From Cloacimonetes bacterium UBA5210 (GTDB taxonomy: Bacteria; Cloacimonadota; Cloacimonadia; Cloacimonadales; Cloacimonadaceae): DNA of 64,000 nt. The stretch covers positions 30,145-94,144 of the forward strand of contig DHVK01000012.1 in NCBI GenBank assembly GCA_002412625.1. Direction: 5' to 3'. Shown here one piece after another: positions 13,413-64,000 of the stretch (positions within the stretch are counted from its first letter, which is position 1; each line of letters starts with the position of its first letter). The position numbers and the translations under genes are program-made. The notes beneath the pieces are model-generated. The model did no database searches. It saw nothing but the letters and a program-made list of their open reading frames with translations, and had not been told where the DNA came from.

Positions 13413-13868
13413 TTATTTGTTCTTGGTTTGGGGGGGTATGATCAGCGGTTCATCCAGCTTGCGGATAAGGTTTGTCCCTTCCGGGATCAGCAATTGCCAG
13501 CCTTTGGTTTCGCCGCTTGCTTTGTGAGTAAGCAGCATGTGCATGGTGTCCCCGGCTAACCATTGCCGTTTGAAATTACCCAGTTGAATGCTCACGATCA
13601 CGGTTCTGGGGAATTTATCGTCGTGGCCCACTTCTTTGATGGCGATGGTGTGGATGGGGTGCGTCTCTGTGGAGATCACTTCCTCCGGGTTGGCTTCCAT
13701 CCAGGCGCGCAGGATGTATTCGTTGGCGCTGGATTTTTCCGCGGCGGTAACGAGCGGCTTGCTGCTGTCGTCCAAAATCAGTTTCTGCACATACACCCGT
13801 GGAATGGTGATTGCCAGCAGTGGCAAGGCCAAAAGCATAATGTACACAAGCGCAAGAATCTTTCTCAT
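13413..13868 (-). CDS. Hypothetical secreted protein
   Basis: N-terminal signal-like segment MRKILALVYIMLLALPLLA. I recognised no other motif. Confidence 0.5.
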   Translation of the reverse strand: MRKILALVYIMLLALPLLAITIPRVYVQKLILDDSSKPLVTAAEKSSANEYILRAWMEANPEEVISTETHPIHTIAIKEVGHDDKFPRTVIVSIQLGNFKRQWLAGDTMHMLLTHKASGETKGWQLLIPEGTNLIRKLDEPLIIPPQTKNK

Positions 13869-51963: not shown

Positions 51964-52164
51964 CTATTGTCCAAAGAACATCTTGATGGCAACGCCGATC
52001 AGCATGAAGAACTGGGTAGTGGAGACGCCCAGAAGCAGCTTCATGTTCGTCTCCACTCTCGCCATACGAGTTACCAGTGAGTTATTGCTGTTACCATTGC
52101 CGTAGATCTCCTCATGCACACTGTCGATGCGCTGTTTGATCTCGGGTTTGCATTGGCAATCCAT
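51964..52164 (-). CDS. Small phage protein with C-terminal TM helix
   Basis: 66 aa. The C-terminal hydrophobic segment is LLLGVSTTQFFMLIGVAIKMFF. Confidence 0.4.
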   Translation of the reverse strand: MDCQCKPEIKQRIDSVHEEIYGNGNSNNSLVTRMARVETNMKLLLGVSTTQFFMLIGVAIKMFFGQ

Positions 52165-52187
52165 GTTTAATCCTTGTGTTTCGATGA

Positions 52188-52739
52188 TTATGCTCCGACT
52201 GGAAGATCCTTAAACAGGTAAATCTTACCTGCAGTCACTCCGGAGAACTCAGTGCTGATAACGACCGTGAACAGACCATCAGCTTCACCCGACCAGTCTA
52301 CTGTCCAGCGTAAGCCATTAAAGATCACTGCGCGGTCTTTACCCTTAGATACGATTACGATAGTCGTGTTCTTGCCCATGAATGAGCTACTCTCAAGGAA
52401 GTCTTTCTGCTTCACAGAGAGACCTACAATACTGAGTTCGATGGTTGAAGTGCGCTTGCCGGGAATGCTGTAGTTCCGGGTCTTGAGCTTGGTGATCTTT
52501 GAATCGGTTTTGCCCGGCTTCTCGGCAAGTTCACCTAAGATGTCATAATTGGTACTTAGCTCGAGGTTAAGGGCAGTCTGGTTGATAAAGTGGGCAGCGA
52601 TATCAAGATCAGTGTAAGTGCCTATCCCGAAGTAGATATCATCGGCAATCATCCCCTCAACTAAAGAAACGAAGTTGAGGTCTTTATCAATCATGGTGCC
52701 CGGATAGACCGGGGGTGTTACAGATGGAGTGGGAGGCAT
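52188..52739 (-). CDS. Phage major tail protein candidate
   Basis: 183 aa and beta-rich, located upstream of the chaperone/TMP region. Call is by position only. Confidence 0.4.
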   Translation of the reverse strand: MPPTPSVTPPVYPGTMIDKDLNFVSLVEGMIADDIYFGIGTYTDLDIAAHFINQTALNLELSTNYDILGELAEKPGKTDSKITKLKTRNYSIPGKRTSTIELSIVGLSVKQKDFLESSSFMGKNTTIVIVSKGKDRAVIFNGLRWTVDWSGEADGLFTVVISTEFSGVTAGKIYLFKDLPVGA

Positions 52740-53090
52740 CTAAAATACTCCCTTGATGGCTTTGCCGATACTGAACAGCCACTTACGGTTGTGGAAGACA
52801 TATTCCACCGCTCCCCCGATAGTGCCGAAGATCTTCATGACCAGATTGGTTTGGTTACTGGGGAGGCTCTTGGTAGCCCGCTCGACTGCCAACTGCTTCT
52901 TGGCATAGTCATCGAGGTCCTTGGTGGCAGGATTGATCTTGATATCCTGGATGATATCGAGGATGATCGCCAGAGCGGAGTTGATCTTGGTCTTATCCAA
53001 GGTCTTACCCGTTATCTTGAAAATGATCCAGACGATCAGGGTGGTGATAAGCCCTAAGATGAAGGCTTGATTGGCAATGATGAAGTCCAT
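52740..53090 (-). CDS. Small phage membrane protein
   Basis: N-terminal TM helix FILGLITTLIVWIIF. Adjacent stop and start with the downstream gene. Confidence 0.4.
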   Translation of the reverse strand: MDFIIANQAFILGLITTLIVWIIFKITGKTLDKTKINSALAIILDIIQDIKINPATKDLDDYAKKQLAVERATKSLPSNQTNLVMKIFGTIGGAVEYVFHNRKWLFSIGKAIKGVF

Positions 53091-53117
53091 TGATACTCCT
53101 TATGTTTTGGTTATTGC

Positions 53118-54860
53118 TTAGGTGGTGAGCTTGAACACTTTCACGAAGCCGGAGATGTAGGTGATCCCGGGACGGATACGGATGTACCAGTGGTACTTCC
53201 AGTCTGCGCCATGGTGCTCAACCTTGAGTTCGGCATCGGTACGGTAACCGATGATGATGAACTTGGGCAGACCGCCGATGATGTAGTCATCAGCCATGAG
53301 ACGTGGCTTTACAGGAATCCCCGCAAAGGATACGTTACCGCCTTCGAGCAGCAGTCTGTCTCCGGCTCCGGTCTCACGTTTGGCGAGTTCGGCTCTGATA
53401 CGGATCAGGTCTTTCTGACTGACATAGAACTTGAAGTTCTCCTGCTCTTCTAACATCTCATCAGAGAAAGCTAGGAGTGCAGCTTCGAAGCGTTTCGCCC
53501 AGTCATTGTAGGTGGTCTTGGAGAGGTTGGTGACATCGGTGGCGGTGGTAGCGAGCTTGATCACTCCATCCAGTCCCTTCAGCTTGGCAGTGGCAGATAC
53601 TCTGTCACCTTTGAAGAGTAGCAGACGGATAGCCTTCTCAGTCTTCTTGGCGATATGGTTCTCTACATAGGCTCCGAAGGCATCCTCACCGTACTTGTCC
53701 TTATAGAACTCCACCACATCCCTGCCTAAGGTAAACTCAGCATTGAGTATCCCAGTGGGGACAGAGAGATCGGCAGTGGCTACGGTCTGAGCTGTAAGAG
53801 CACCATCGAGACTATTCTTGAATACCAGGTCATCAATCAGTCCGGCATCGATCTTCTCATCTTTGAGGAGTGGGATAATCGAGATATCGGAAAGGGTATC
53901 ACCGGGCTGGCTGCCAATCACTTCATCGATAAACAGAGATGTGGTATTAGCATTGAGGATGTTCATGGCTTTACCGGAGTCTACATCGGAGATGCCTTTG
54001 TAGATCTCCCGGTGGCTTGCTTTGACCACGATCTTGTTACCATCGATCATGACTTCTTTATCCGCATTCATCTGATTGCCGTCCGGCTCACCTGAAATGC
54101 TCTTGGAGATAGCTCTGGTCATGGTGACTGAGAGGTCTTTCAGGCTCTTCTCGATGCTCTTGATGGCTTCCGAGACGATTACAGTGCCACTGCTCTTCTC
54201 AAGCTCGGTGATCCGCTCAGTGATGGCAGTGATACCTTTCTGCATCTCACTGTTGTTGTTCAGTTCCGCTACCTTACGCAGGCTGCCCAGTTCGTTCTTG
54301 ATCTCGGCTAAGCTGGCTTCGGTGCCACCGTAGTCATCGGCCCGTCCATAGATGGATACCCCATTGAACTCGCCCTTCTCGACCTTCTGCCAGAGTTCAC
54401 TCTGCAGGTTCTCGCACTTGAGGACTTGCACCCAAGAGCCGACTTTAGCATCGGGGAAATGCTCCCGGTCACTGGTCTTGAGTAGGTAGTTCTCCACTAC
54501 GGTAAACTCCGGTACGGGCTGCATATTGTGGTTTACATCGCATTTGCCGACTAAGCCGTGCTTGGCGAAGTGATCACAGGACTTCTGAATCTCTTCCCGG
54601 GTGTAATAGTCCCCCTGGGAGTCATGGATGTTAGGCTCCATCAGAGTGACGTAAAGCCGTCCTTGAGTGCCTGATGTCTCACTCTTGAACTTGGTGGAGT
54701 TGATCTTGTGTTCAAAGCTCCGTCCGGAAGCATTCTTGACCACAAAGCCTTTCTGGTTAGCCGGGTTCATCTCGTCAAAGAGGAGCGAGACCAGCTCGAC
54801 TTCCACATTGCGCAGTTCGCCCTTTTTGACGATCCTGCTCTTAGTTCCGAAGATATTCAT
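53118..54860 (-). CDS. Fusion of XkdF-like prohead protease/scaffold region and HK97-fold major capsid protein
   Basis: The N-terminal ~180 aa match the XkdF-type pattern (DSQGDYYTREEIQKSCDHF...DVNHN...VVENY...GSWVQVLK...ELWQKVEKGEFNGVSIYG). A coiled-coil linker follows, then a ~300-aa C-terminal region of capsid size and position. Confidence 0.6.
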   Translation of the reverse strand: MNIFGTKSRIVKKGELRNVEVELVSLLFDEMNPANQKGFVVKNASGRSFEHKINSTKFKSETSGTQGRLYVTLMEPNIHDSQGDYYTREEIQKSCDHFAKHGLVGKCDVNHNMQPVPEFTVVENYLLKTSDREHFPDAKVGSWVQVLKCENLQSELWQKVEKGEFNGVSIYGRADDYGGTEASLAEIKNELGSLRKVAELNNNSEMQKGITAITERITELEKSSGTVIVSEAIKSIEKSLKDLSVTMTRAISKSISGEPDGNQMNADKEVMIDGNKIVVKASHREIYKGISDVDSGKAMNILNANTTSLFIDEVIGSQPGDTLSDISIIPLLKDEKIDAGLIDDLVFKNSLDGALTAQTVATADLSVPTGILNAEFTLGRDVVEFYKDKYGEDAFGAYVENHIAKKTEKAIRLLLFKGDRVSATAKLKGLDGVIKLATTATDVTNLSKTTYNDWAKRFEAALLAFSDEMLEEQENFKFYVSQKDLIRIRAELAKRETGAGDRLLLEGGNVSFAGIPVKPRLMADDYIIGGLPKFIIIGYRTDAELKVEHHGADWKYHWYIRIRPGITYISGFVKVFKLTT

Positions 54861-55022
54861 GTAATCTCCTTGTTATTGTTTTGAGTTCATGATTTTATGC
54901 TAAGCCATAATGACAAACCACCATGCCTAACTGTGCGACAGTTTTAGTTAAGCATCGATGAGATTTTACTTGTGCTATTTATGGTGGTTAAGAGACTTGT
55001 ACAAAATGAATAGGGAGAATAT

Positions 55023-55979
55023 ATGTCTCTACAACAAAGCTTTAAATGTTTTATGTCCGAAACGCAATCAATAACCCTCAATATAGTGTTGAACAATGTC
55101 AAAGACCGCTATCTTGAGATGATCGACTCAAGTGATGATGTTTATGTGAATACAATGAAAAACAAAATGCTATCCACTCTTAGCAACATGACGGTTCAGT
55201 ATGATGAGTATCATGGCCAGTTTTATCAGGATTATAGCGAGGTAACTTTGTATTTAATACTGAAACATAATGATCTCGATATAACTCCTTTAGCAAGAAA
55301 GAGTTATAGCACGCCTGATTTCAGAATAGTACTCGCTGGGAAAGATTACTTTGTGGAAAATAAGTGCCTAATGCCTATGAACACAGTAATCAACATGGCT
55401 GGACTTCAAGAGCAGATGTTAGAAGTTAACATAGAACTTGAGGAGAAATCGAAAAAGAAGGGCGTACATTTTGGTGCTCCCATCGTTTGCCAACCTCATA
55501 GAGCTAACACTGAAAAATACAGCCATAATGCCAATCTACTAGTAATAGATAACATTATAAGGAAAGTAGTACAGAATTGTAAATCTTCCCAGTTGTCAAA
55601 AAATACTATTCTCATGATAGATATGACCCATTTACCTCTTCATCATCGACCAACTTCATCAGCATTCATATACCTAGGTTCTGACGAGTTAGTTTATACC
55701 GCTCCATTATGGATATCTTGTTTTGGAAAAATCGGAACACCCGTTTTTGGTGTTAAAGAGTTTCCTCTTGGGAATTTTGAGGGATACATGGAAATCGATG
55801 GTATCTTTAACTCAATCAATGAGCTGAATGCCATAGCTTTCAGGTTCGATGATTGGACTGGTGATTCAGTATTTATTGGATTTGATAGATATGGGTTTGA
55901 CATGGACAGACTAATCCAGTCCTTTTGTAAAGAGAGTAATAATGATCGAAACAGACACTGTTTTCCTTCACTGATGTAG
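55023..55979 (+). CDS. PD-(D/E)xK nuclease-like protein with unknown C-terminal domain (AT-rich moron)
   Basis: YSEVTLYLIL...STPDFRIVLAGKDYFVENKC gives E...PD...(x13)...ExK in the expected order. GGGAG RBS precedes the ATG at 55023. The gene is AT-rich and runs opposite to the flanking portal and capsid genes. Confidence 0.55.
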   Translation: MSLQQSFKCFMSETQSITLNIVLNNVKDRYLEMIDSSDDVYVNTMKNKMLSTLSNMTVQYDEYHGQFYQDYSEVTLYLILKHNDLDITPLARKSYSTPDFRIVLAGKDYFVENKCLMPMNTVINMAGLQEQMLEVNIELEEKSKKKGVHFGAPIVCQPHRANTEKYSHNANLLVIDNIIRKVVQNCKSSQLSKNTILMIDMTHLPLHHRPTSSAFIYLGSDELVYTAPLWISCFGKIGTPVFGVKEFPLGNFEGYMEIDGIFNSINELNAIAFRFDDWTGDSVFIGFDRYGFDMDRLIQSFCKESNNDRNRHCFPSLM

Positions 55980-56002
55980 TTAATTATGTTAAAATTCCAA
56001 TG

Positions 56003-57199
56003 TTACTTTACTCCAAAGTTTCGGCTTTGCATAAAGAGTTGATCATCCGCAGATTGGAGCTTCTCGGTTAGATTGCCGAAGTTGAAGTCGTCCGGAGTGA
56101 GGTTCCACCCGAACTCAAAGTTGAACTCTATTGCCAGGGTAAGTGCGAGGCGATTCTGCAGTGGCTTGACTACGAAGTGGTAGAACATCAGCATATCGCT
56201 CTTGTTATCGCCACCCAGCTGCCCTGGGATCAGCTGTGAGACGATCCTTGCCGGAACCCGGTGATAAGCGAAGATACCTTCCCGCAAGTCTTTCTTAAGA
56301 GTGATGAAGCCACCTTCCCTGTCCTGCTGACGCAGTGGCTCGAGGCGTATCTTCACATCCCGGCTCTCGCTTTCGATTAGTACAGTAGAGTGGCTCTTGG
56401 CATTGCCTTTGACCTCGGTGAGTGCCTTTTCGATCTCGGTATAGGCATCGGTGAGGACTTCATTGCCCTGCTCGTCTGTAACGGTTCCGTCTCTGAGCGT
56501 GCCACCTTCCACAATCACGAAGTAATCGATCATCAGCCCGTTCTTGAAGTTGTTGTAGTCGAAGGTCTTGATCTCGGAGAGTATCTCGACATTAATGGCT
56601 ATCGGCAGGCAGGCCAAGCCCCAGGCATTGCTCTTATGGGTGCTCTTCTTGATGTGGATGATATCGGCATAGGCGAAGTCCTTCTTCTGGTTGTTCTTCA
56701 CTTGGATATAGTTAGGTCGAAAGAAGCCGAACTCGTCATAGTTCTCTACGATCTGCACTTCACTGGGCAGCATACGTTCGAGTCCCATCCACTGTCCCTG
56801 AGCGTTACGCATCTTGATCAGGAAGCCATTCCCACAGGTGAGATAGAACTTGATCATCTCAGCCAGGATAGTGGTCTGGTCTTCACAGGCAGGAAACTCG
56901 GCAGCTTCCATCCAGGACTTTACCTGGCTGTTCTTGCAGTCGAACTCCATGACAGTTGCCATAGACAAGGCATCCACACAACCGGAGTGGTACTCATCAG
57001 TATCCAGGAGGTTGAGCAGGTTACTCATCGAGTAGGGCTGAGAGACCACTTTCTTAGTCTCGGCTGCTTTGGAGATCAGTTGCTTACCGACCCGGCTGCA
57101 CTTGGATAAGTCAATCGGCTCAGGCTTGTATTTGGTCTCCAGGAGTTCAGTAGCAGAACTGATCGCCAGGTTATATCCACCCAGTCGCATCACTCTCAT
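56003..57199 (-). CDS. Phage portal protein candidate
   Basis: 398 aa. Its size, its position upstream of the protease/capsid gene and its C-terminal pattern (AYHRVPARIVSQL...MLMFYHFVVKPLQNRL) resemble HK97-family portals. Confidence 0.6.
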   Translation of the reverse strand: MRVMRLGGYNLAISSATELLETKYKPEPIDLSKCSRVGKQLISKAAETKKVVSQPYSMSNLLNLLDTDEYHSGCVDALSMATVMEFDCKNSQVKSWMEAAEFPACEDQTTILAEMIKFYLTCGNGFLIKMRNAQGQWMGLERMLPSEVQIVENYDEFGFFRPNYIQVKNNQKKDFAYADIIHIKKSTHKSNAWGLACLPIAINVEILSEIKTFDYNNFKNGLMIDYFVIVEGGTLRDGTVTDEQGNEVLTDAYTEIEKALTEVKGNAKSHSTVLIESESRDVKIRLEPLRQQDREGGFITLKKDLREGIFAYHRVPARIVSQLIPGQLGGDNKSDMLMFYHFVVKPLQNRLALTLAIEFNFEFGWNLTPDDFNFGNLTEKLQSADDQLFMQSRNFGVK

Positions 57200-57597
57200 G
57201 CCGATGCTCCTGTTCCTGCCTTGAGCAGGTCGATCTTGGCGATCCTGACCAGTCTGGTACCGTCGATGCGGCTGGTGTAGTATTCCACACTGGGCAAGTC
57301 CCGGTTCATCAGCTTGAGATATAAAGAGCGGAACTTCTCTTTGAGTTGGTAAAGGTCGTTATCTGGATCATCCACGTTCTGAGCATTGACAATCAGAAAC
57401 ACTGTCCAAGCCAAATCAGTACTAACATACTGTCTTGAAGTGCCATTCTTGCCTGTCTCTGAGTCCAGAATCACAATAGCACAGGGCAACTGCTTGGGGA
57501 TAGCATCCTTGTTGAACTGGATGGTCGGGATATCGGAATACTTCAATGCATCGACTATCCGATTCCGGTCTGCGATAAACTTCTCATGAGCGGTCAT
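57196..57597 (-). CDS. Phage head-tail connector/tail-completion-size protein
   Basis: ATGA overlap with the upstream gene when the start is set at 57597. 4-nt overlap with the portal gene. No motif. Confidence 0.4.
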   Translation of the reverse strand: MTAHEKFIADRNRIVDALKYSDIPTIQFNKDAIPKQLPCAIVILDSETGKNGTSRQYVSTDLAWTVFLIVNAQNVDDPDNDLYQLKEKFRSLYLKLMNRDLPSVEYYTSRIDGTRLVRIAKIDLLKAGTGASA

Positions 57598-58082
57598 AGA
57601 CTTACCTCGATAGAACTCAATTGTTGGTATATCCACTGCTCCCGGTTAGCAATAACCTCAGCGAATACATTACGGGCAGCGATGCCTTCCCGCTTGATCT
57701 TGCCCCTAATGAGATAAGCGATCTCAGCTACGGTCAGCAGCTTTCCTGTCTCTTTATCAGTCCAAGACAGGTGCTTGCGTTCGACCCAGGCGATCAGTGG
57801 AGCGATCGGAGTCCAGGAAGGCACTTTGCCACCCAATACAAAAGGCTCGTGTTTGACGTTGGAGCCTACTCTGAGGATCATGGCATCAGGACTGGTCTCA
57901 ACCAGATAACCGGTATTGCCATAAAAGTCACCCTTATCGTAGATCTGCTGTGCCAGTATCTCCTTTCGGGACTCAGCATCGATCACAGAACCGATCAAAT
58001 GCAGACGGCTCTCCAGAGCAGTATAGATAGCCAAGTAGATCTCCCGCATCAGCTCATCCGGTGTGGTATAGCTATCAGGCAT
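57594..58082 (-). CDS. Phage hypothetical (connector-size) protein
   Basis: It lies in the coupled gene block. No motif. Confidence 0.4.
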   Translation of the reverse strand: MPDSYTTPDELMREIYLAIYTALESRLHLIGSVIDAESRKEILAQQIYDKGDFYGNTGYLVETSPDAMILRVGSNVKHEPFVLGGKVPSWTPIAPLIAWVERKHLSWTDKETGKLLTVAEIAYLIRGKIKREGIAARNVFAEVIANREQWIYQQLSSIEVSL

Positions 58083-58540
58083 CAGATCACTCCCACCCGG
58101 ATCACTCTTGGAGGTCGGGGTTTCAACTCATCCAACCGAAGTAAACCAGTGGAATTGAGATAGTCTCGAAGTACGGTCAGTGCTCTCAGTTCAAGGTTAG
58201 CTTTGAATGCGTCAATTTCGCTCCCTGTGAGCAGTTCGGTAGCAGACTGGTCTAATCCTACGGTCTTCACTATTCCCTCGCCCAGGGTCTTCAAATTGAG
58301 AAACTCACAAGTACTGTGCAGCATCAGGAAACAGAACCCAAAACGAAAAGAGATCAGAAATGGCTCTTCCTCCGGCATATCATCCTGTATAGCACGATTG
58401 TAATATTCCGGTAAGACGATGGTTCTGATAGTCTCCATTACGATAGCCTTATGCTCTTTGAATATGCCGTTATCACCCATCTCCTTAGGAAGATTGAGTA
58501 TATCGAGCATGGCATCTATCTCGACCGGGATTGGTATCAC
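58082..58540 (-). CDS. Phage hypothetical (connector-size) protein
   Basis: It overlaps the neighbours by 1-4 nt. No motif. Confidence 0.4.
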   Translation of the reverse strand: MIPIPVEIDAMLDILNLPKEMGDNGIFKEHKAIVMETIRTIVLPEYYNRAIQDDMPEEEPFLISFRFGFCFLMLHSTCEFLNLKTLGEGIVKTVGLDQSATELLTGSEIDAFKANLELRALTVLRDYLNSTGLLRLDELKPRPPRVIRVGVI

Positions 58541-58962
58541 TTGCCTTTTCTCATCAGTTCGGGTAACTCAATCGCCCTGCGACCAACCTGCTTTGCCCAT
58601 TTGGAGGCAAGCATGTTATTAGCAGCCCGTTCCCAGTCACCTGCTTCTATGAACGCAAGGGTGTTTTTGAAGCTAAGTAGTCCTTTTATGCCCATGTTAA
58701 AGCACATATTCAGCAGTACCGATTTACGTACCTCATCAATCTGAAGATAGATTTTTGGAATCTCAGCCAGAATTTGTCTCTCACACTGCAGAATATCGCC
58801 TTCTAAGAGCAAATAAGCTTCCTTCTGAGTGATACCGCAATCATCCAGATTGCGACCAACCCCGATGGTTAATTTACCAGCTGTGCAGCGGTAAGGCTTC
58901 AGCCTCAGACCTTCATGTCTCAGCAGTTGTTCTTTCATGCGTTCCAGTAAGTTAGCTTCCAT
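58537..58962 (-). CDS. Phage lysozyme (T4/GH24-type muramidase)
   Basis: LLRHEGLRLKPYRCTAGKLTIGVGRNL with the catalytic-Glu context E-G, typical of GH24 lysozymes. AAGGAG RBS precedes the ATG at 58962, so the track start at 59091 is an extension. Confidence 0.85.
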   Translation of the reverse strand: MEANLLERMKEQLLRHEGLRLKPYRCTAGKLTIGVGRNLDDCGITQKEAYLLLEGDILQCERQILAEIPKIYLQIDEVRKSVLLNMCFNMGIKGLLSFKNTLAFIEAGDWERAANNMLASKWAKQVGRRAIELPELMRKGK

Positions 58963-59168
58963 TGTGTCTCCTTGCGATGTCAGTGGATACTCTATCCAGT
59001 GCAAGGAAGCCACTACCCTGTATAAACACAAATATGGATGCATAAGGTTGCGACAGATTTTAGTATTGACAGAATCTGACCTTTGAAGCATTAGTAATTA
59101 CCATGAAGAAACATTTACAGGATTTGTCATGGTCGGTGAGAAACACATTGTGATGGAGACGAGTAGTT

Positions 59169-60323
59169 ATGCTACAAGTTAGTAATATTGCAAAAAGTAT
59201 CGATGTATATTCGTTCTTCTCGGGAATAGGGCTTTTAGACCTAGGTTTCGAGAATGCAGGATTCAATATAGAGTTTGTTAGTGATATAAAGAGAGCATTC
59301 TTACATGGATATCAATATGCAAGAAAGTGTATGAAACTTTCAGCTCCCATGTATGGGTATTGGAACGCTAGCATCGACGAAGCTTTAGATAACAGATTGG
59401 AAAACTCTTTGAAAAATGCGCTATGTGATTCAAAGTCCAGAAATCAAAGGGTCTTTTTTGTTGGGGGTCCCCCATGTCCAGATTTCTCTGTCGGTGGAAA
59501 AAACCACGGTAAGAATGGAGATAATGGCAAGTTATCAAAATCATATGTAGATATAATCCTAGAATACAAGCCCGATGGTTTTTTGTTTGAGAATGTCAAA
59601 GGCTTGTGGCGCACCAAAAGACACCGTGAATTCTACGAAGAGATTAAGGCAATCCTGATTAAGAATGGGTATAGAGTCACAGAAAGCTTAGTTAATGCAA
59701 TTGAGTATGGAGTCCCGCAGGACAGGGAACGAATTATCCTAATCGGGTTTCATGAATCTTTTCTGAAGTTGAGTAAGCATCATGAGCAAAATGGATATTT
59801 AACAGATTTTCCGTGGGATAAGTACAAGGAGCATAATCTATCTGAAATAAGTGGATTGCCCTGGCCCCAAACAACTGAATTCCATTCAAATTCAAAGAGT
59901 TCATGCCCAGCTGGTATCAATGTTGAACTGGCAGTCGAATACTGGTTTACGAAAAACAATGTTTTGAAGCATCCAAACACTCATCATTGCTTCGTGCCAA
60001 GAGCTGGACTAGCAAAGTTTAAAACGATTGCAGAAGGTGACGTTTCAAAAAAGTCTTATAAACGGCTTCATCGGTGGAGATATTCTCCAACTGCTGCATA
60101 TGGCAATAATGAAGTGCACCTACATCCCTATTTTGAAAGAAGAATATCAGTGGCTGAGGCACTATCTATTCAATCTTTGCCTGCAGAGTTCAATTTACCC
60201 AATGACATGTCATTATCCGATATGTTTAAATCTATCGGGAATGGGGTTCCATACCTGTTGGCTTTAGGAATAGCTAAAACAATCTTGTCTTACTTAGGAG
60301 AAAATGATGTCGGTGACTGTTAG
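59169..60323 (+). CDS. dcm: DNA (cytosine-5)-methyltransferase
   Basis: Motif I FFSGIGLLDLGF, motif IV GGPPCPDFS, motif VI FLFENVKGL, motif VIII QDRERIILIGF and C-terminal GNGVPYLL. Confidence 0.95.
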   Translation: MLQVSNIAKSIDVYSFFSGIGLLDLGFENAGFNIEFVSDIKRAFLHGYQYARKCMKLSAPMYGYWNASIDEALDNRLENSLKNALCDSKSRNQRVFFVGGPPCPDFSVGGKNHGKNGDNGKLSKSYVDIILEYKPDGFLFENVKGLWRTKRHREFYEEIKAILIKNGYRVTESLVNAIEYGVPQDRERIILIGFHESFLKLSKHHEQNGYLTDFPWDKYKEHNLSEISGLPWPQTTEFHSNSKSSCPAGINVELAVEYWFTKNNVLKHPNTHHCFVPRAGLAKFKTIAEGDVSKKSYKRLHRWRYSPTAAYGNNEVHLHPYFERRISVAEALSIQSLPAEFNLPNDMSLSDMFKSIGNGVPYLLALGIAKTILSYLGENDVGDC

Positions 60324-61386
60324 CAATATAATACATGCAATCAACAAGTTGGATAAGAATATACACTACAATTACATCGATAATACTACAACCACGAAAA
60401 TCATTATTGATGAAGTAAGGCAGCCTGAAGGCCCCATCTATATCAAACGATACGACCCTAACAAGGGCAAGGGTACAATTGAAGCTATCAGAACATCAAT
60501 ATCATCACAAATGCTCTTAAGAATAGCTAATGCTGTTTCGGAAAACTACCCTATCAATATTGACAGGATACTTGGAGCGAGCTACAATACAAGATCAGCA
60601 CTTGAAGCTCTTTTAGCATATACTCCCGAGTTTTACTATTGCTATCCAGGAAGGATACAAAAAACAAGCACAGGTTCTAAAGTAGTAAGCGGACATAAGC
60701 ACCTTCTCTACAGACCAGATAATCCTCACGCTCAAGGCGTAATAGTAGAGGCTAAAACAGACTTTGTAATTTCTGAAATACCAACTGCAGAAGCCGTATA
60801 CGACGCTATTGAAATTCCTGTTTTTCCAAATAGTCCCGAGTTGGATATTGATATCCAAAGAAGGCATGCACAGATTCAGATAGCATTATTGTTTATAGGT
60901 GTCCAACTGGGTTCATCCATTTGGGTGGCACAAAATGATCGAGGAATTCAATACCGGGGTAGTAAATTGTGCGAAATCGAAGGAGTTATTAATGACCTTA
61001 AGAAAGTTCAGCAAATACAAGCATACCATGACGCACAAAGGGCAGCGTCATATATTGACGTTATTTGGTTCAGAAACTCGAGATTCATGCCAGCAGTATT
61101 CGAGATTGAGCACACGACTGGAGTAGTCAGGGGTTTATCCAGAATGATGGAGTTTAAAAGTAAGATTCCTCCAATTGACACTAGATGGGTAATTGTTGGA
61201 GAAGAATCTCTGCGATCAAAAGTCATAGAGTTAGCTAACCAAAATCAGTATAAGGATATGAATACAAGATTCATGTCATATGGTGCAGTCGAGGAGCTCT
61301 TTTCGCTTTGTCAACGGAGGCGGATTAAAGGTATCAACGATGATTTTTTAGATTGTTTTATGGAGTACTGCGTTGTAAATGGATAA
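60304..61386 (+). CDS. Putative type II restriction endonuclease (cognate of the Dcm methylase)
   Basis: It lies between the m5C methylase and vsr, overlapping both. Candidate PD-(D/E)xK-like core YIDVIWF...MPAVFEIEHT. I recognised no specific family. Confidence 0.55.
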   Translation: MMSVTVSNIIHAINKLDKNIHYNYIDNTTTTKIIIDEVRQPEGPIYIKRYDPNKGKGTIEAIRTSISSQMLLRIANAVSENYPINIDRILGASYNTRSALEALLAYTPEFYYCYPGRIQKTSTGSKVVSGHKHLLYRPDNPHAQGVIVEAKTDFVISEIPTAEAVYDAIEIPVFPNSPELDIDIQRRHAQIQIALLFIGVQLGSSIWVAQNDRGIQYRGSKLCEIEGVINDLKKVQQIQAYHDAQRAASYIDVIWFRNSRFMPAVFEIEHTTGVVRGLSRMMEFKSKIPPIDTRWVIVGEESLRSKVIELANQNQYKDMNTRFMSYGAVEELFSLCQRRRIKGINDDFLDCFMEYCVVNG

Positions 61387-61819
61387 TACTACTCCTGAAA
61401 TCCGTAGCAGAATGATGAAAGCAAATAGGTCATGCAACACCAAACCGGAATTGGTTATTCGAAGTATGATCCACAGAATGGGCTTCAGGTATCGTGTTAA
61501 CCTGAAGGTGATTCCTGGAAAACCAGATATTGCATTCACCAAAATGAAAAAAGCAATTTTCATACATGGTTGTTTTTGGCATCAACACGATGTAGGCTGT
61601 AGTTGTGCACATCTTCCACAATCAAATAAAGATTATTGGTCGAAAAAGTTTACGTACAACAGACAAAGAGATATTGCAGTACAAAAAGAACTAACCGATT
61701 TAGGGTGGAGATATTTGATCATTTGGGAGTGTGAACTAAATGACATTGACATAGTGAGAAATAAAGTTTTATACTTCCTCAATAACAACGAATATACGTC
61801 TAAATTGGTAAATGAATAA
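61379..61819 (+). CDS. vsr: Very short patch repair endonuclease
   Basis: RSRMMKANRSCNTKPELVIRSMIHRMGFRYRVN, PGKPDIAF and IFIHGCFWHQH are canonical Vsr motifs. Confidence 0.93.
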   Translation: MDNTTPEIRSRMMKANRSCNTKPELVIRSMIHRMGFRYRVNLKVIPGKPDIAFTKMKKAIFIHGCFWHQHDVGCSCAHLPQSNKDYWSKKFTYNRQRDIAVQKELTDLGWRYLIIWECELNDIDIVRNKVLYFLNNNEYTSKLVNE

Positions 61820-64000
61820 TTCAACCGTAACCCATTCAGAACTTGAAACTAACGGAAGTAACCAACACATGAAAACTAACTTTACTGTAAACGCTAAAGT
61901 GGAGCAATTACTAGGCAGGCACTTGATTACCAATAAGACAGTTGCCCTATATGAGCTGATAAAGAACTCATATGATGCGGGTGCAAGGAATGTCTACATT
62001 AGGTTTAAAGGGTTTAAACTTATCGTGAATCCTGATGATAGCACATGGGACAAATTAAAGAAGGCTAATCCTACGACTAAAACGTTATGTTCTGACTCAA
62101 ATTCACTGATAGAAATACAAGACGATGGAAGCGGAATGACTGATGTGGAGATTCTTGATAATTGGCTACAGCTAGGCACAGCGATAAAGGAAGACATCGA
62201 CGAAATCGATTATGTTGTTAGCAATGGTGCTGTTGAAAAAATTGATAGTAAGCCACAAGACTTAAACCAGCAATATCTTAAAAGAATCCTGAATGGAGAA
62301 AAAGGCATCGGAAGACTTGGTGTCGATATTCTTGGTTCAAAACTCGAATTAAAAGCAGTTAGCTCTCTAAATACGAGTCGTTTGAGCTCAATCATAGTGA
62401 ATTGGGATGCTTTTAACGATCATACAAAGAAGATTGAAGATATAAAACTGGAGCTTCATACAACAGAAAATAGTAGTCTGATGTCCTCAGGGGTAAAGCT
62501 CACTATAAGTAATCTTAGAGAAAGATGGTCTCTTTATGATTATGATATTGTAGTTAAAAACTTGAGAAAAATGGTTGCCCCTGACGTCGTTGACAATCTT
62601 GATTTTCAAATTCATATAGAGATTTATCGATCTGAGCTTGATAGTGCCCCGAGTGATAGTTATATAATAAAAAATGATGTTTTTTCAAACTTATCGACAT
62701 TTGTGCAGGCAGAAATCATGGCATCTGGAGTTTATAATTACTCAATAACCTATCAGGGAGTGGTTGCTGAGAAAGGTACGGGGGAATTTCTTTTCCATAA
62801 CGATAATGAGAGGTTTGGGCGAGCCAAGTTTCGAGCCTATTATCTTGATAGCAATGACAAGGGAAAGTTCACAAAACTTACGGGTGTGTCAACAAGGGAC
62901 TATGGGAATATACGTTTATACAGGGACGCGTTCCGGGTATTACCCTACGGTGAACCAGAAAATGATTGGTTGCGTATTGACCAGAAACACTCTCAGGGAT
63001 TATTCAGAACCTTAGGATCAAGAGATTTGTTAGGGTATGTTCAAATATCAAGAAAGCAGGATTGGCAAAATTCTCGCCTAAGAGATTCAACAAATAGATT
63101 GGGGTTGATTGAAGACGATCCGGCTTTTCTCAAACTAAGGGATGACTTTATCTGGACTGTACTTAAAAAGCTGCAAAGTTTCATATTCAAGCGTATCGAA
63201 TATGAGTCTCGAGGAGAAACTGACCTTCTGAAACTAAAGATCTCTGAGTTTAAAAGAGCTTTTGACGACGATGTAGAGTCTATAACAAAAATAATCCAAG
63301 AAATGCCACTAAGTCAGCCACAAAAAGAAACTCTTATAAAGGAGATGGATGACTTTCACGAAAAGTACGAGGAACCTGTAAGAAATCTTGCTAAGATGAC
63401 TCAATCGATTGATAATAGAATTAAATTGCTGGCGAGCTTATCTAGTTCTGAAACCCTCCTTTTTAAACTGTTTCATGAAGTGAAAACAAGTATCAGCATG
63501 TTAAAGTCATTAGTCATTGAGAGCGAGATGGAGAATCCCGAGGTTGTTTGGGAGGATTTTTATTTTGGCATAGATCGAATTCAAAAGTTCGTAGATTTTG
63601 CACTTAAAAGCGTGAACCCAATTTTGCTGCCGTCTGAAAGCATTCCAGTTAATGGTTTTATTAAGCAATTTATTGCCGCTGTACTGCCTAAACTAAGACT
63701 TGAAAACATAAAGATTCAAAACAACTTGTCAGATGCAGTTAACAATATTGATGTTCAGATAAACAGACACTCTCTCGACATTGCTATATCTAACCTAATC
63801 GACAATGCGTGCAAGGCTGTTTTTGAAGCACAAACAAAGATTATATCGCTTGACTATTTAATTAGTGATGATAGCTTTGTTCTGATGATTTCAGATACTG
63901 GTCGAGGATTGTCGCGGGATGCCAGGTTAACGCTTTTTTCTCTCGGAGAAACTACAACCAGAAATCTGCAAGGCTCAGGTATTGGCTTAACATTTACAAA
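61812..64000 (+). CDS. Large dual-ATPase protein: N-terminal MORC/HATPase_c_3-like GHKL domain plus C-terminal histidine-kinase-like DHp+CA module (3' end outside window)
   Basis: This ORF is not in the supplied track. My manual translation from the ATG at 61812 stays open to position 64000 (~729 codons). N-terminal Bergerat motifs are YELIKNSYDAGA, IQDDGSGM and GEKGIGRLG. C-terminal motifs are the H-box-like LFHEVKTSISML, N-box SNLIDNACKAV, G1 SDTGRGL and G2 GSGIGL. Confidence 0.75.
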   Translation, partial: MNNSTVTHSELETNGSNQHMKTNFTVNAKVEQLLGRHLITNKTVALYELIKNSYDAGARNVYIRFKGFKLIVNPDDSTWDKLKKANPTTKTLCSDSNSLIEIQDDGSGMTDVEILDNWLQLGTAIKEDIDEIDYVVSNGAVEKIDSKPQDLNQQYLKRILNGEKGIGRLGVDILGSKLELKAVSSLNTSRLSSIIVNWDAFNDHTKKIEDIKLELHTTENSSLMSSGVKLTISNLRERWSLYDYDIVVKNLRKMVAPDVVDNLDFQIHIEIYRSELDSAPSDSYIIKNDVFSNLSTFVQAEIMASGVYNYSITYQGVVAEKGTGEFLFHNDNERFGRAKFRAYYLDSNDKGKFTKLTGVSTRDYGNIRLYRDAFRVLPYGEPENDWLRIDQKHSQGLFRTLGSRDLLGYVQISRKQDWQNSRLRDSTNRLGLIEDDPAFLKLRDDFIWTVLKKLQSFIFKRIEYESRGETDLLKLKISEFKRAFDDDVESITKIIQEMPLSQPQKETLIKEMDDFHEKYEEPVRNLAKMTQSIDNRIKLLASLSSSETLLFKLFHEVKTSISMLKSLVIESEMENPEVVWEDFYFGIDRIQKFVDFALKSVNPILLPSESIPVNGFIKQFIAAVLPKLRLENIKIQNNLSDAVNNIDVQINRHSLDIAISNLIDNACKAVFEAQTKIISLDYLISDDSFVLMISDTGRGLSRDARLTLFSLGETTTRNLQGSGIGLTFT

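Follow-up and report, generated by a model that had tools for sequence, protein, structure and literature searches.

A GHKL-sensor histidine kinase with receiver, putative effector and cytosine methylase partners in a Cloacimonetes defence island, a candidate phosphorelay defence cassette

The stretch considered here, 64,000 nucleotides (nt) of Cloacimonetes bacterium UBA5210 (contig DHVK01000012.1, referred to as the window), ends within a long gene for a sensor histidine kinase that carries two GHKL ATPase domains, and it is this gene and those that follow it just beyond the window edge that form the subject of this report. The public contig DDWG01000044.1 (assembly GCA_002345525.1), which holds the window sequence, was used to read past the edge. 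The kinase gene is followed there by a gene for a receiver protein of 220 amino acids (aa), REC220, then by a gene for a probable effector of 217 aa, P217, with a C5-cytosine methylase gene, Dcm510, converging on them from the opposite strand (Table 1). A first-pass annotation, made from the letters of the window, had suggested that a partner such as a response regulator or an effector may lie just beyond the edge, and the receiver and probable effector genes bear this out. The four genes are read below as a possible phosphorelay defence cassette.

The first-pass annotation had noted the kinase frame as open from an ATG at 61812 to the window edge, and no stop or misread frame was found in it. 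Positions 61812-64000 of the + strand translate to 729 stop-free codons and on the public contig the frame closes 106 nt past the edge, giving a protein of 764 aa from the first ATG or 745 aa as called. A frame of this length at around 37 % guanine plus cytosine (GC) is far beyond chance, as inferred from stop-codon frequency. All of the motifs quoted from it earlier are present (ELIKNSYDAGA, DDGSGM, GEKGIGRLG, LFHEVKTSISML, NLIDNACKAV, DTGRGL and GSGIGL). The protein was aligned with 30 homologs that are 23-35 % identical to it, and across these E29, N33, D36, D85xGxG89 and G143xKGxGR149 of the N-terminal ATPase are invariant, as are the N box (N642, N646), the G1 box (D676xGxG680) and the G2 box (G702xGxG706) of the C-terminal one. 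His536 (codon 63474-63476) is also invariant, with an acidic residue next to it, which is Glu in the window protein. HATPase_c_3 and HATPase_c both exceed their Pfam cut-offs in all 30 members, the HATPase_c match reaching 56 bits where the cut-off is 26.4, thus the claim of two GHKL domains in one chain holds.

The C-terminal third had been proposed to be a DHp+CA module of the kind found in two-component kinases, and this too is upheld. By sequence alone aa 531-733 align to the DHp+CA module of SrrB (6paj) with an E of 6e-10. In an AlphaFold model built from the 30-homolog alignment, with a mean predicted local distance difference test score (pLDDT) of 78, a GHKL domain (aa 1-216) and an alpha/beta domain (aa 222-410) are followed by two very long helices, the second of which carries His536, by a return helix that closes the DHp hairpin (Table 1), and by a CA domain (aa 590-745). 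Foldseek places only histidine-kinase DHp+CA modules among the 50 best PDB matches of this model (E 1e-12 to 1e-9). That the protein is a histidine kinase with a genuine DHp+CA core is well supported by alignment and model alike; it is soluble in outline, and no nuclease domain was detected in it by Pfam and NCBIfam scans.

It is probable that the gene begins further 3' than had been thought. The 8-nt overlap of the ATG at 61812 with the vsr stop is real, but the ATG at 61869, which is M20 of the earlier translation, is the likelier start, as the N-termini of 29 homologs line up with it, the public gene call (P0001) begins there and GGAAG is found 10 nt 5' of it. Nothing resembling a Shine-Dalgarno sequence was seen 5' of the ATG at 61812. 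A start at 61869 leaves a spacer of 49 nt between vsr and the kinase, and the translational coupling to vsr that had been proposed is therefore unlikely. A sigma-70-like promoter sequence is found within the 3' end of vsr, with 11 of 12 consensus positions matching, and it is possible that this is the kinase cassette's own promoter.

The sensor of the kinase is, as far as sequence comparison can tell, a second GHKL ATPase domain that is related to certain restriction enzymes. The N-terminal halves of 29 of the 30 kinase members match NF050001, the BbrUII/HgiDII family of restriction enzymes (best E 4e-24), with the window protein matching over aa 76-251 (E 2e-10). This last match scores 39.7 bits where 550 are required and is confined to positions 45-199 of the 659 in the profile, the N-terminal module being homologous to the N-terminal half of BbrUII/HgiDII in a protein that is not itself a member of that family. 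R.HgiDII has an N-terminal GHKL domain, and R.EcoUTORF4938P, which is listed in REBASE as a putative restriction endonuclease (REase), has an N-terminal GHKL and a C-terminal histidine-kinase-like domain (Orlowski & Bujnicki 2008, PMC2441816), whilst M.HgiDII and M.BbrUII are 5-methylcytosine methylases (PMC5867850). These enzymes are therefore like the kinase both in the homologous GHKL module and in having a 5-methylcytosine methylase as partner. BbrUII and HgiDII differ from it in their C-terminal half, which is of unassigned fold and lacks a kinase core, and the window kinase differs from them in that no nuclease activity is predicted for it.

The N-terminus had been called MORC-like, which is correct in that the ATPase is of the HATPase_c_3 type but is too specific, as the nearest named relatives are the N-terminal half of BbrUII/HgiDII and, among solved structures, the N-domains of Hsp90. 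The solved structures that a profile of the N-terminal 415 aa matches best are the N-domains of Hsp90, HtpG and Grp94 (E 1e-9), and each of the 60 PDB matches listed is an Hsp90-type N-domain, MORC and MutL being absent from the list. MORC and paraMORC proteins (Iyer, Abhiman & Aravind 2008, PMC2292703) do share with the kinase a HATPase_c_3-type GHKL domain with intact motifs that is followed by a conserved alpha/beta domain, and on mobile islands both are found in association with cytosine methylases, Vsr and nucleases, but for paraMORC1-5 neither a kinase core nor a receiver partner is described (PMC2292703). The middle domain of the kinase carries the motif FRvxPYGExxxDW, invariant in the homologs (R356, P359, Y360, G361, D366), and is presumed to be the transducer or the ligand-binding part of the sensor, with DNA as a candidate ligand.

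Relatives of the kinase are widespread. A scan of species-representative genomes gave at least 567 confirmed hits, each in a different species-level genome, and 80 loci were taken from these; the counts of neighbours below are over 79 loci unless they are given out of 81, and the downstream families were found with iterated profiles. By their record titles the loci span at least 12 bacterial phyla, including Firmicutes, Bacteroidota, Proteobacteria, Planctomycetota, Verrucomicrobiota, Patescibacteria, Spirochaetes and Actinobacteria, as well as four archaeal lineages. A C5-methylase homolog is found at 75/81 loci; in 58 of the 79 the Dcm is directly 5' of the kinase on the same strand, in 72 it is no more than three genes away, and the median gap between Dcm and kinase is -4 nt. 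A conventional endonuclease is absent at most loci. The first-pass annotation had proposed looking for the same architecture beside dcm and vsr in other genomes, and the association is found with dcm, whilst vsr is present at 16/81 loci.

The gene directly 3' of the kinase belongs to the REC220 family in 66 of the 79 loci, with all gaps at or below 30 nt and a median of -4 nt. D70 is invariant in this family and the two acidic residues that follow strand 1 are near-invariant (D15), 30 of 42 members match Pfam Response_reg, and the family profile finds 231 solved receiver domains in the PDB, down to an E of 7e-13. REC220 alone has no Pfam match, even at E 10, and it ties to the receiver family only via the iterated family profile (E 1.5e-20); in a word-indexed homolog search both REC220 and P217 have only 2-4 close relatives each. 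The profile comparisons identify the REC220 family as a receiver domain with a predicted phospho-acceptor Asp.

It is in the outputs of these receivers that the family departs from a standard regulator, with no DNA-binding family found by profile searches in the receiver-family proteins or in the tails of the short receivers. The receiver proteins of 36 loci carry an additional, fused helical domain of around 180 aa. The motif RNxx[AG]H is present in all 37 of the receiver proteins of around 300 aa, with R132, N133 and H137 invariant, and 9 of 16 members of this class give sub-threshold matches that are spread over five HEPN Pfam families. Because of the motif and these matches the fused domain reads as a putative HEPN-like RNase.

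The window locus has a different arrangement, with a short receiver followed by P217. The P217 family is found 3' of the receiver gene in 20-23 loci, and together with a short receiver in 20, including that of the window. P217 alone has no Pfam match, even at E 10, and an exhaustive HMMER search with a P217 homolog gave one distant relative only. H67, G68, C102 and G123 are invariant in 22 members of the family, which gives it a His-Gly...Ser-Cys pair, and when its profile is compared with the PDB 37 of 43 weak matches are to caspases (p20, catalytic SHG strand; E 0.05-1). A model from a 3-sequence alignment is of low confidence (pLDDT 47). It puts the His at the end of strand 61-67 and the Cys after strand 96-101 of a parallel sheet, and 43 of its 50 best Foldseek matches are caspases or MALT1 (E 3.5e-3 to 5e-2, template-modelling score 0.26-0.46). 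On balance these matches tentatively favour P217 being a caspase-like cysteine protease.

Further arrangements are seen at a few loci. Four from Bacteroidota (L009, L016, L017 and L055) have a bare receiver of 124-138 aa, to which no output is fused, and lack the 217-aa gene; in the first three an unlabelled gene of around 360-390 aa is found between Dcm and kinase, and in L055 the Dcm is directly before the kinase. The receivers of L047, L060, L070 and L072 are 374-403 aa and have a different C-terminal domain of no assigned family, with the receiver parts of L047 and L070 giving weak matches to the PADLOC candidate PDC-M60 (B and C). In a variant on the Bacteroides finegoldii plasmid NZ_OY725905.1 (L083, 5986-11088) the GHKL-kinase is accompanied by a receiver-like protein of 209 aa, the gene for which is followed by those for an HNH endonuclease, PtuB-like in PADLOC, and for an N6-adenine methylase that replaces the C5-methylase. 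In Acinetobacter baumannii CP040048.1 (L084, 4001-10277) the gene after that of the kinase homolog encodes a hypothetical protein of 637 aa without a Pfam match, genes for a PAPS-reductase-like and an ATP-binding protein are on the opposite strand, and no methylase was found in the 10-kb stretch (4 kb each side of the kinase gene).

At the window locus two C5-methylases are candidates for the methylase of the cassette. The kinase had been placed in the operon of the restriction-modification (R-M) unit that precedes it, which consists of Dcm384, a type II REase and vsr. Dcm384 was ruled out as the methylase of the cassette, as the cassette-adjacent Dcms from 58 other loci average 54 bits against Dcm384 and 174 bits against Dcm510. 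From this difference it follows that the kinase cassette most likely pairs with Dcm510 and that the R-M genes with vsr are a neighbour in a separate operon, most likely a conventional type II R-M unit of the same defence island. With Dcm510 as the cognate type of methylase and a near-consensus promoter sequence within the vsr 3' end, the kinase is probably not part of the R-M operon. The 3' ends of P217 (+) and Dcm510 (-) overlap by 29 nt (13534-13562 of locus record L001, equivalent to window 65402-65430). In the public contig record no gene is called for vsr, and the interval from the REase to the kinase is left blank.

Table 1. Features of the kinase locus and its surroundings (window positions; those beyond 64000 are window-equivalent)
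Feature	Position	Strand	Remarks
Sensor kinase gene (GHKL-HK)	61869-64000	+	First 710 of 745 codons in window; stop at window-equivalent 64106; product identical to P0001 (745 aa)
In-frame 5' extension from the earlier ATG	61812-61868	+	Probably untranslated
N-terminal Bergerat-fold ATPase (HATPase_c_3, aa 24-195)	61938-62453	+	Pfam PF13589, E 3e-13
Middle alpha/beta domain (aa ~220-415)	62526-63113	+	Model pLDDT mostly 75-90; invariant columns
Long coiled-coil linker and DHp helical hairpin (aa 418-581)	63120-63611	+	Helices 418-478, 483-555 and 562-581 in model
CA (HATPase_c) domain, cut by window edge	63636-64000	+	Pfam PF02518, E 6e-15 for full protein
Sigma-70-like promoter sequence TTGACA-18-TATACT	61746-61775	+	Consensus match only
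REC220, 220-aa receiver protein	64106-64768	+	Overlaps kinase stop codon
P217, 217-aa protein	64777-65430	+	Next gene after REC220
Dcm510 C5-methylase, convergent	65402-66934	-	Cassette-type methylase
Dcm384 C5-cytosine methyltransferase, neighbouring R-M unit	59169-60323	+	Pfam DNA_methylase, E 2.5e-48
Type II restriction endonuclease (NmeDI_C family), neighbouring R-M unit	60304-61386	+	PADLOC REase_II PDLC03534, E 3e-114; Pfam NmeDI_C in contig record
vsr, very-short-patch repair endonuclease, neighbouring R-M unit	61379-61819	+	Pfam Vsr, E 2e-28; TIGR00632, 142 bits
Phage portal gene	56003-57199	-	
S78 protease/capsid gene	53118-54860	-	

The island itself is flanked by phage genes. The block from Dcm384 to Dcm510 has a GC content of 37-40 %, against 47-51 % in its flanks. 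On one side of it (window ~52000-59100, - strand) are lysozyme, portal and S78 protease/capsid genes and on the other, beyond 64000 (L001 15100-22238, - strand), are genes for Mu F-like, DUF3164, MuB-like AAA_22 and rve+Mu-transpos_C (MuA) proteins. Given the low GC of the island and the Mu-like genes that flank it, the cassette is part of a low-GC defence island that a Mu-like prophage carries as cargo. A megablast of 59000-64000 against phage and Escherichia coli collections gave no match. Between the portal and S78 genes, on the strand opposite to them, an open reading frame (ORF) of 318 aa is found (55023-55979, +) with a GC content of around 36 % and no Pfam or PADLOC match, it is probably a second imported 'moron' of the prophage.

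What the cassette does for its host can be approached through its parts. The reading preferred here, to which a probability of around one half is given, is that C5-methylase, GHKL-kinase, receiver and effector form a methylation-linked phosphorelay that serves as an anti-phage or anti-plasmid alarm rather than as a transcriptional regulator. The methylase would mark the host DNA as self, and the HgiDII-like GHKL ATPase with the middle domain would bind unmethylated target DNA, be it foreign or post-segregational, or would respond to another infection cue. Dimerisation of the sensor, driven by ATP, would then turn the kinase on, His536 would be phosphorylated and the phosphate handed to Asp70 of the receiver, which in its phosphorylated form would release or activate a toxic output. 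At the window locus this output would be P217, possibly acting as a caspase-like cysteine protease, whilst at most other loci it would be the receiver-fused HEPN-like RNase and at some an HNH nuclease. The outcome would be growth arrest or abortive infection.

That a phosphorelay can serve as a defence system has a precedent in Detocs, in which the kinase DtcA, the buffer receiver DtcB and the receiver-effector DtcC provide proven defence (Rousset et al. 2023, 10.1101/2023.01.24.525353). The cassette would work like Detocs in outline, with a cytoplasmic sensor kinase that hands phosphate to a receiver and a predicted cell-killing output in the place of a DNA-binding one, and it is just such interchangeable toxin-like outputs behind the receiver that mark out Detocs. 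It is unlike Detocs in that the latter has a TPR-based sensor, two receivers and no linked methylase, uses an ATP nucleosidase as its main effector and is experimentally proven, and the DtcA, DtcB and DtcC profiles of PADLOC are matched by none of the kinase, REC220 and P217. A more specific version, which is tentative and clearly the less probable of the two, is that of a restriction-like immunity in which the GHKL sensor would read cytosine methylation and a His-Asp relay would fire interchangeable toxins (a HEPN RNase, a minimal caspase-like protease or an HNH nuclease), an R-M system that signals instead of cuts and that would be found across bacteria, archaea and prophages.

Several points weigh against an alarm of this kind. 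Defence and toxicity are inferred, as are phosphotransfer and the sensing of DNA, with the reading of unmethylated DNA by the sensor the least secure step. No experimental study of any member of the cassette was found in the literature, and PADLOC has no model that matches the kinase, REC220 or P217 as a defence family, even at E <= 10. The assignment of P217 is weak, and hhalign of its profile against human caspase-3 is not significant (1.4 % probability). That of the HEPN-like domain stands on the motif and the sub-threshold matches, the domain profile having no meaningful match in the PDB, and about 10 of the 66 receiver proteins have other extensions or none. The number of promoter-like sites in the region overall is not above that in shuffles, which bears on the proposed promoter of the cassette.

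The architecture of the kinase is not an oddity but that of a known, widespread and computationally described family. The first-pass annotation knew of no characterised example and none was found, but the architecture had already been described computationally in 2008 (PMC2441816) and 2021 (PMC8011034). In the later of these, Bellieny-Rabelo, Pretorius & Moleleki (2021, Genome Biol Evol, PMC8011034) reported HATPase_c_3+HEF_HK+HATPase_c kinases beside response regulator (RR)-like genes and C5-methylases, with a linkage to RR-like genes of 91.6 %, C5-methylases upstream and Vsr or HNH neighbours; the RR-like proteins had no further domain, and a system similar to a two-component system (TCS) that possibly regulates R-M was proposed. 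This HEF_HK/Response_reg_2 family is like the window cassette in its soluble three-part kinase, a receiver-like gene 3' of it and a C5-methylase usually 5', and Vsr and HNH are frequent neighbours in both. The Pfam seeds of HEF_HK are mostly from Proteobacteria, unlike the clade of the window. P0001 has no match to HEF_HK (PF19191) at E <= 0.01 and only one of its 30 relatives does (2e-5), with the A. baumannii homolog reaching 18.8 bits at the equivalent DHp position where the cut-off is 24.1, and only one of 42 receivers matches Response_reg_2 (PF19192; E 0.008), with the classical Response_reg matched instead. The window's clade, with its members from Firmicutes, Bacteroidota, archaea and others, is therefore divergent. 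The receiver family of the window is also unlike the RR-like proteins of that study in that it carries, or is accompanied by, toxin-like outputs. The HEPN survey, the TRADD-N paper and Iyer et al. (PMC2292703) describe no cassette of GHKL-kinase, receiver and effector, and the HATPase/REC figure legend of the DefensePredictor paper is unrelated to the cassette or uninformative for it. What is new here is the homology of the sensor to the N-terminal half of BbrUII/HgiDII, the toxin-like receiver outputs and Dcm510 as the methylase of the cassette.

Three other explanations of the cassette can be put forward, all of which are weaker than the phosphorelay defence reading. The proposal of PMC8011034 leads to the one that survives best, although it is unlikely, namely a regulatory TCS in which the kinase responds to a signal from inside the cell, nucleotide levels for instance, and the receiver controls the expression or activity of the neighbouring R-M genes. 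The canonical pairing of histidine kinase and response regulator genes agrees with this, as does the constant proximity of methylases and R-M genes, and an N-terminal ATPase could well sense nucleotides. Against it, no DNA-binding output domain was found in any receiver-family protein, more than half of the receivers have a HEPN-like RNxxxH domain, and in a third of cases the His/Cys protein comes next. Most loci, moreover, have a methylase but no conventional REase that could be regulated.

Slightly less probable again is that the protein is itself a component of restriction, part of an ATP-dependent nuclease complex in which the kinase-like domain is just a second ATPase or a dimerisation module, with no phosphorelay, as the REBASE-style labelling of such ORFs as putative REases would suggest. 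The homology of the N-terminal half to BbrUII/HgiDII invites this, R.EcoUTORF4938P with its GHKL and histidine-kinase-like domains is listed among putative REases (PMC2441816), adjacency to a C5-methylase is typical of R-M pairs, and the only match of the kinase in PADLOC is a weak one to REase_II over the first 43 residues. A nuclease domain was nevertheless not detected, and the kinase His, the acidic residue next to it and all of the ATP-binding boxes are invariant, as is the Asp of the receiver, the gene for which is translationally coupled to that of the kinase. Without phosphotransfer it would be difficult to account for such invariance of kinase and receiver residues.

A MutL-like helper of Vsr, in which the GHKL ATPase would aid T:G repair after deamination of 5-methylcytosine at linked Dcm sites, is very improbable, as despite the functional interaction of E. 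coli MutL, a GHKL ATPase, with Vsr (PMC2292703) and the position of vsr directly 5' at the window locus, Vsr is absent at about 80 % of loci where Dcm and receiver are nearly constant, MutL is not among the nearest solved relatives, and kinase core, receiver and toxin-like outputs would be left without a role.

If the phosphorelay defence reading is correct, the cassette would join restriction-modification and two-component signalling, which have been thought of as separate, and would add to Detocs a second, independent example of a phosphorelay that acts directly as an immune pathway. It would also offer a tractable system for the reading of an epigenetic mark by a GHKL/MORC-type ATPase, and P217 would perhaps be among the smallest caspase-like effectors, under phospho-control. 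Even if the conservative part of the finding alone is correct, it would provide a shared context, open to testing, for thousands of genes that at present carry labels such as 'sensor histidine kinase', 'ATP-binding protein' or 'putative restriction enzyme'.

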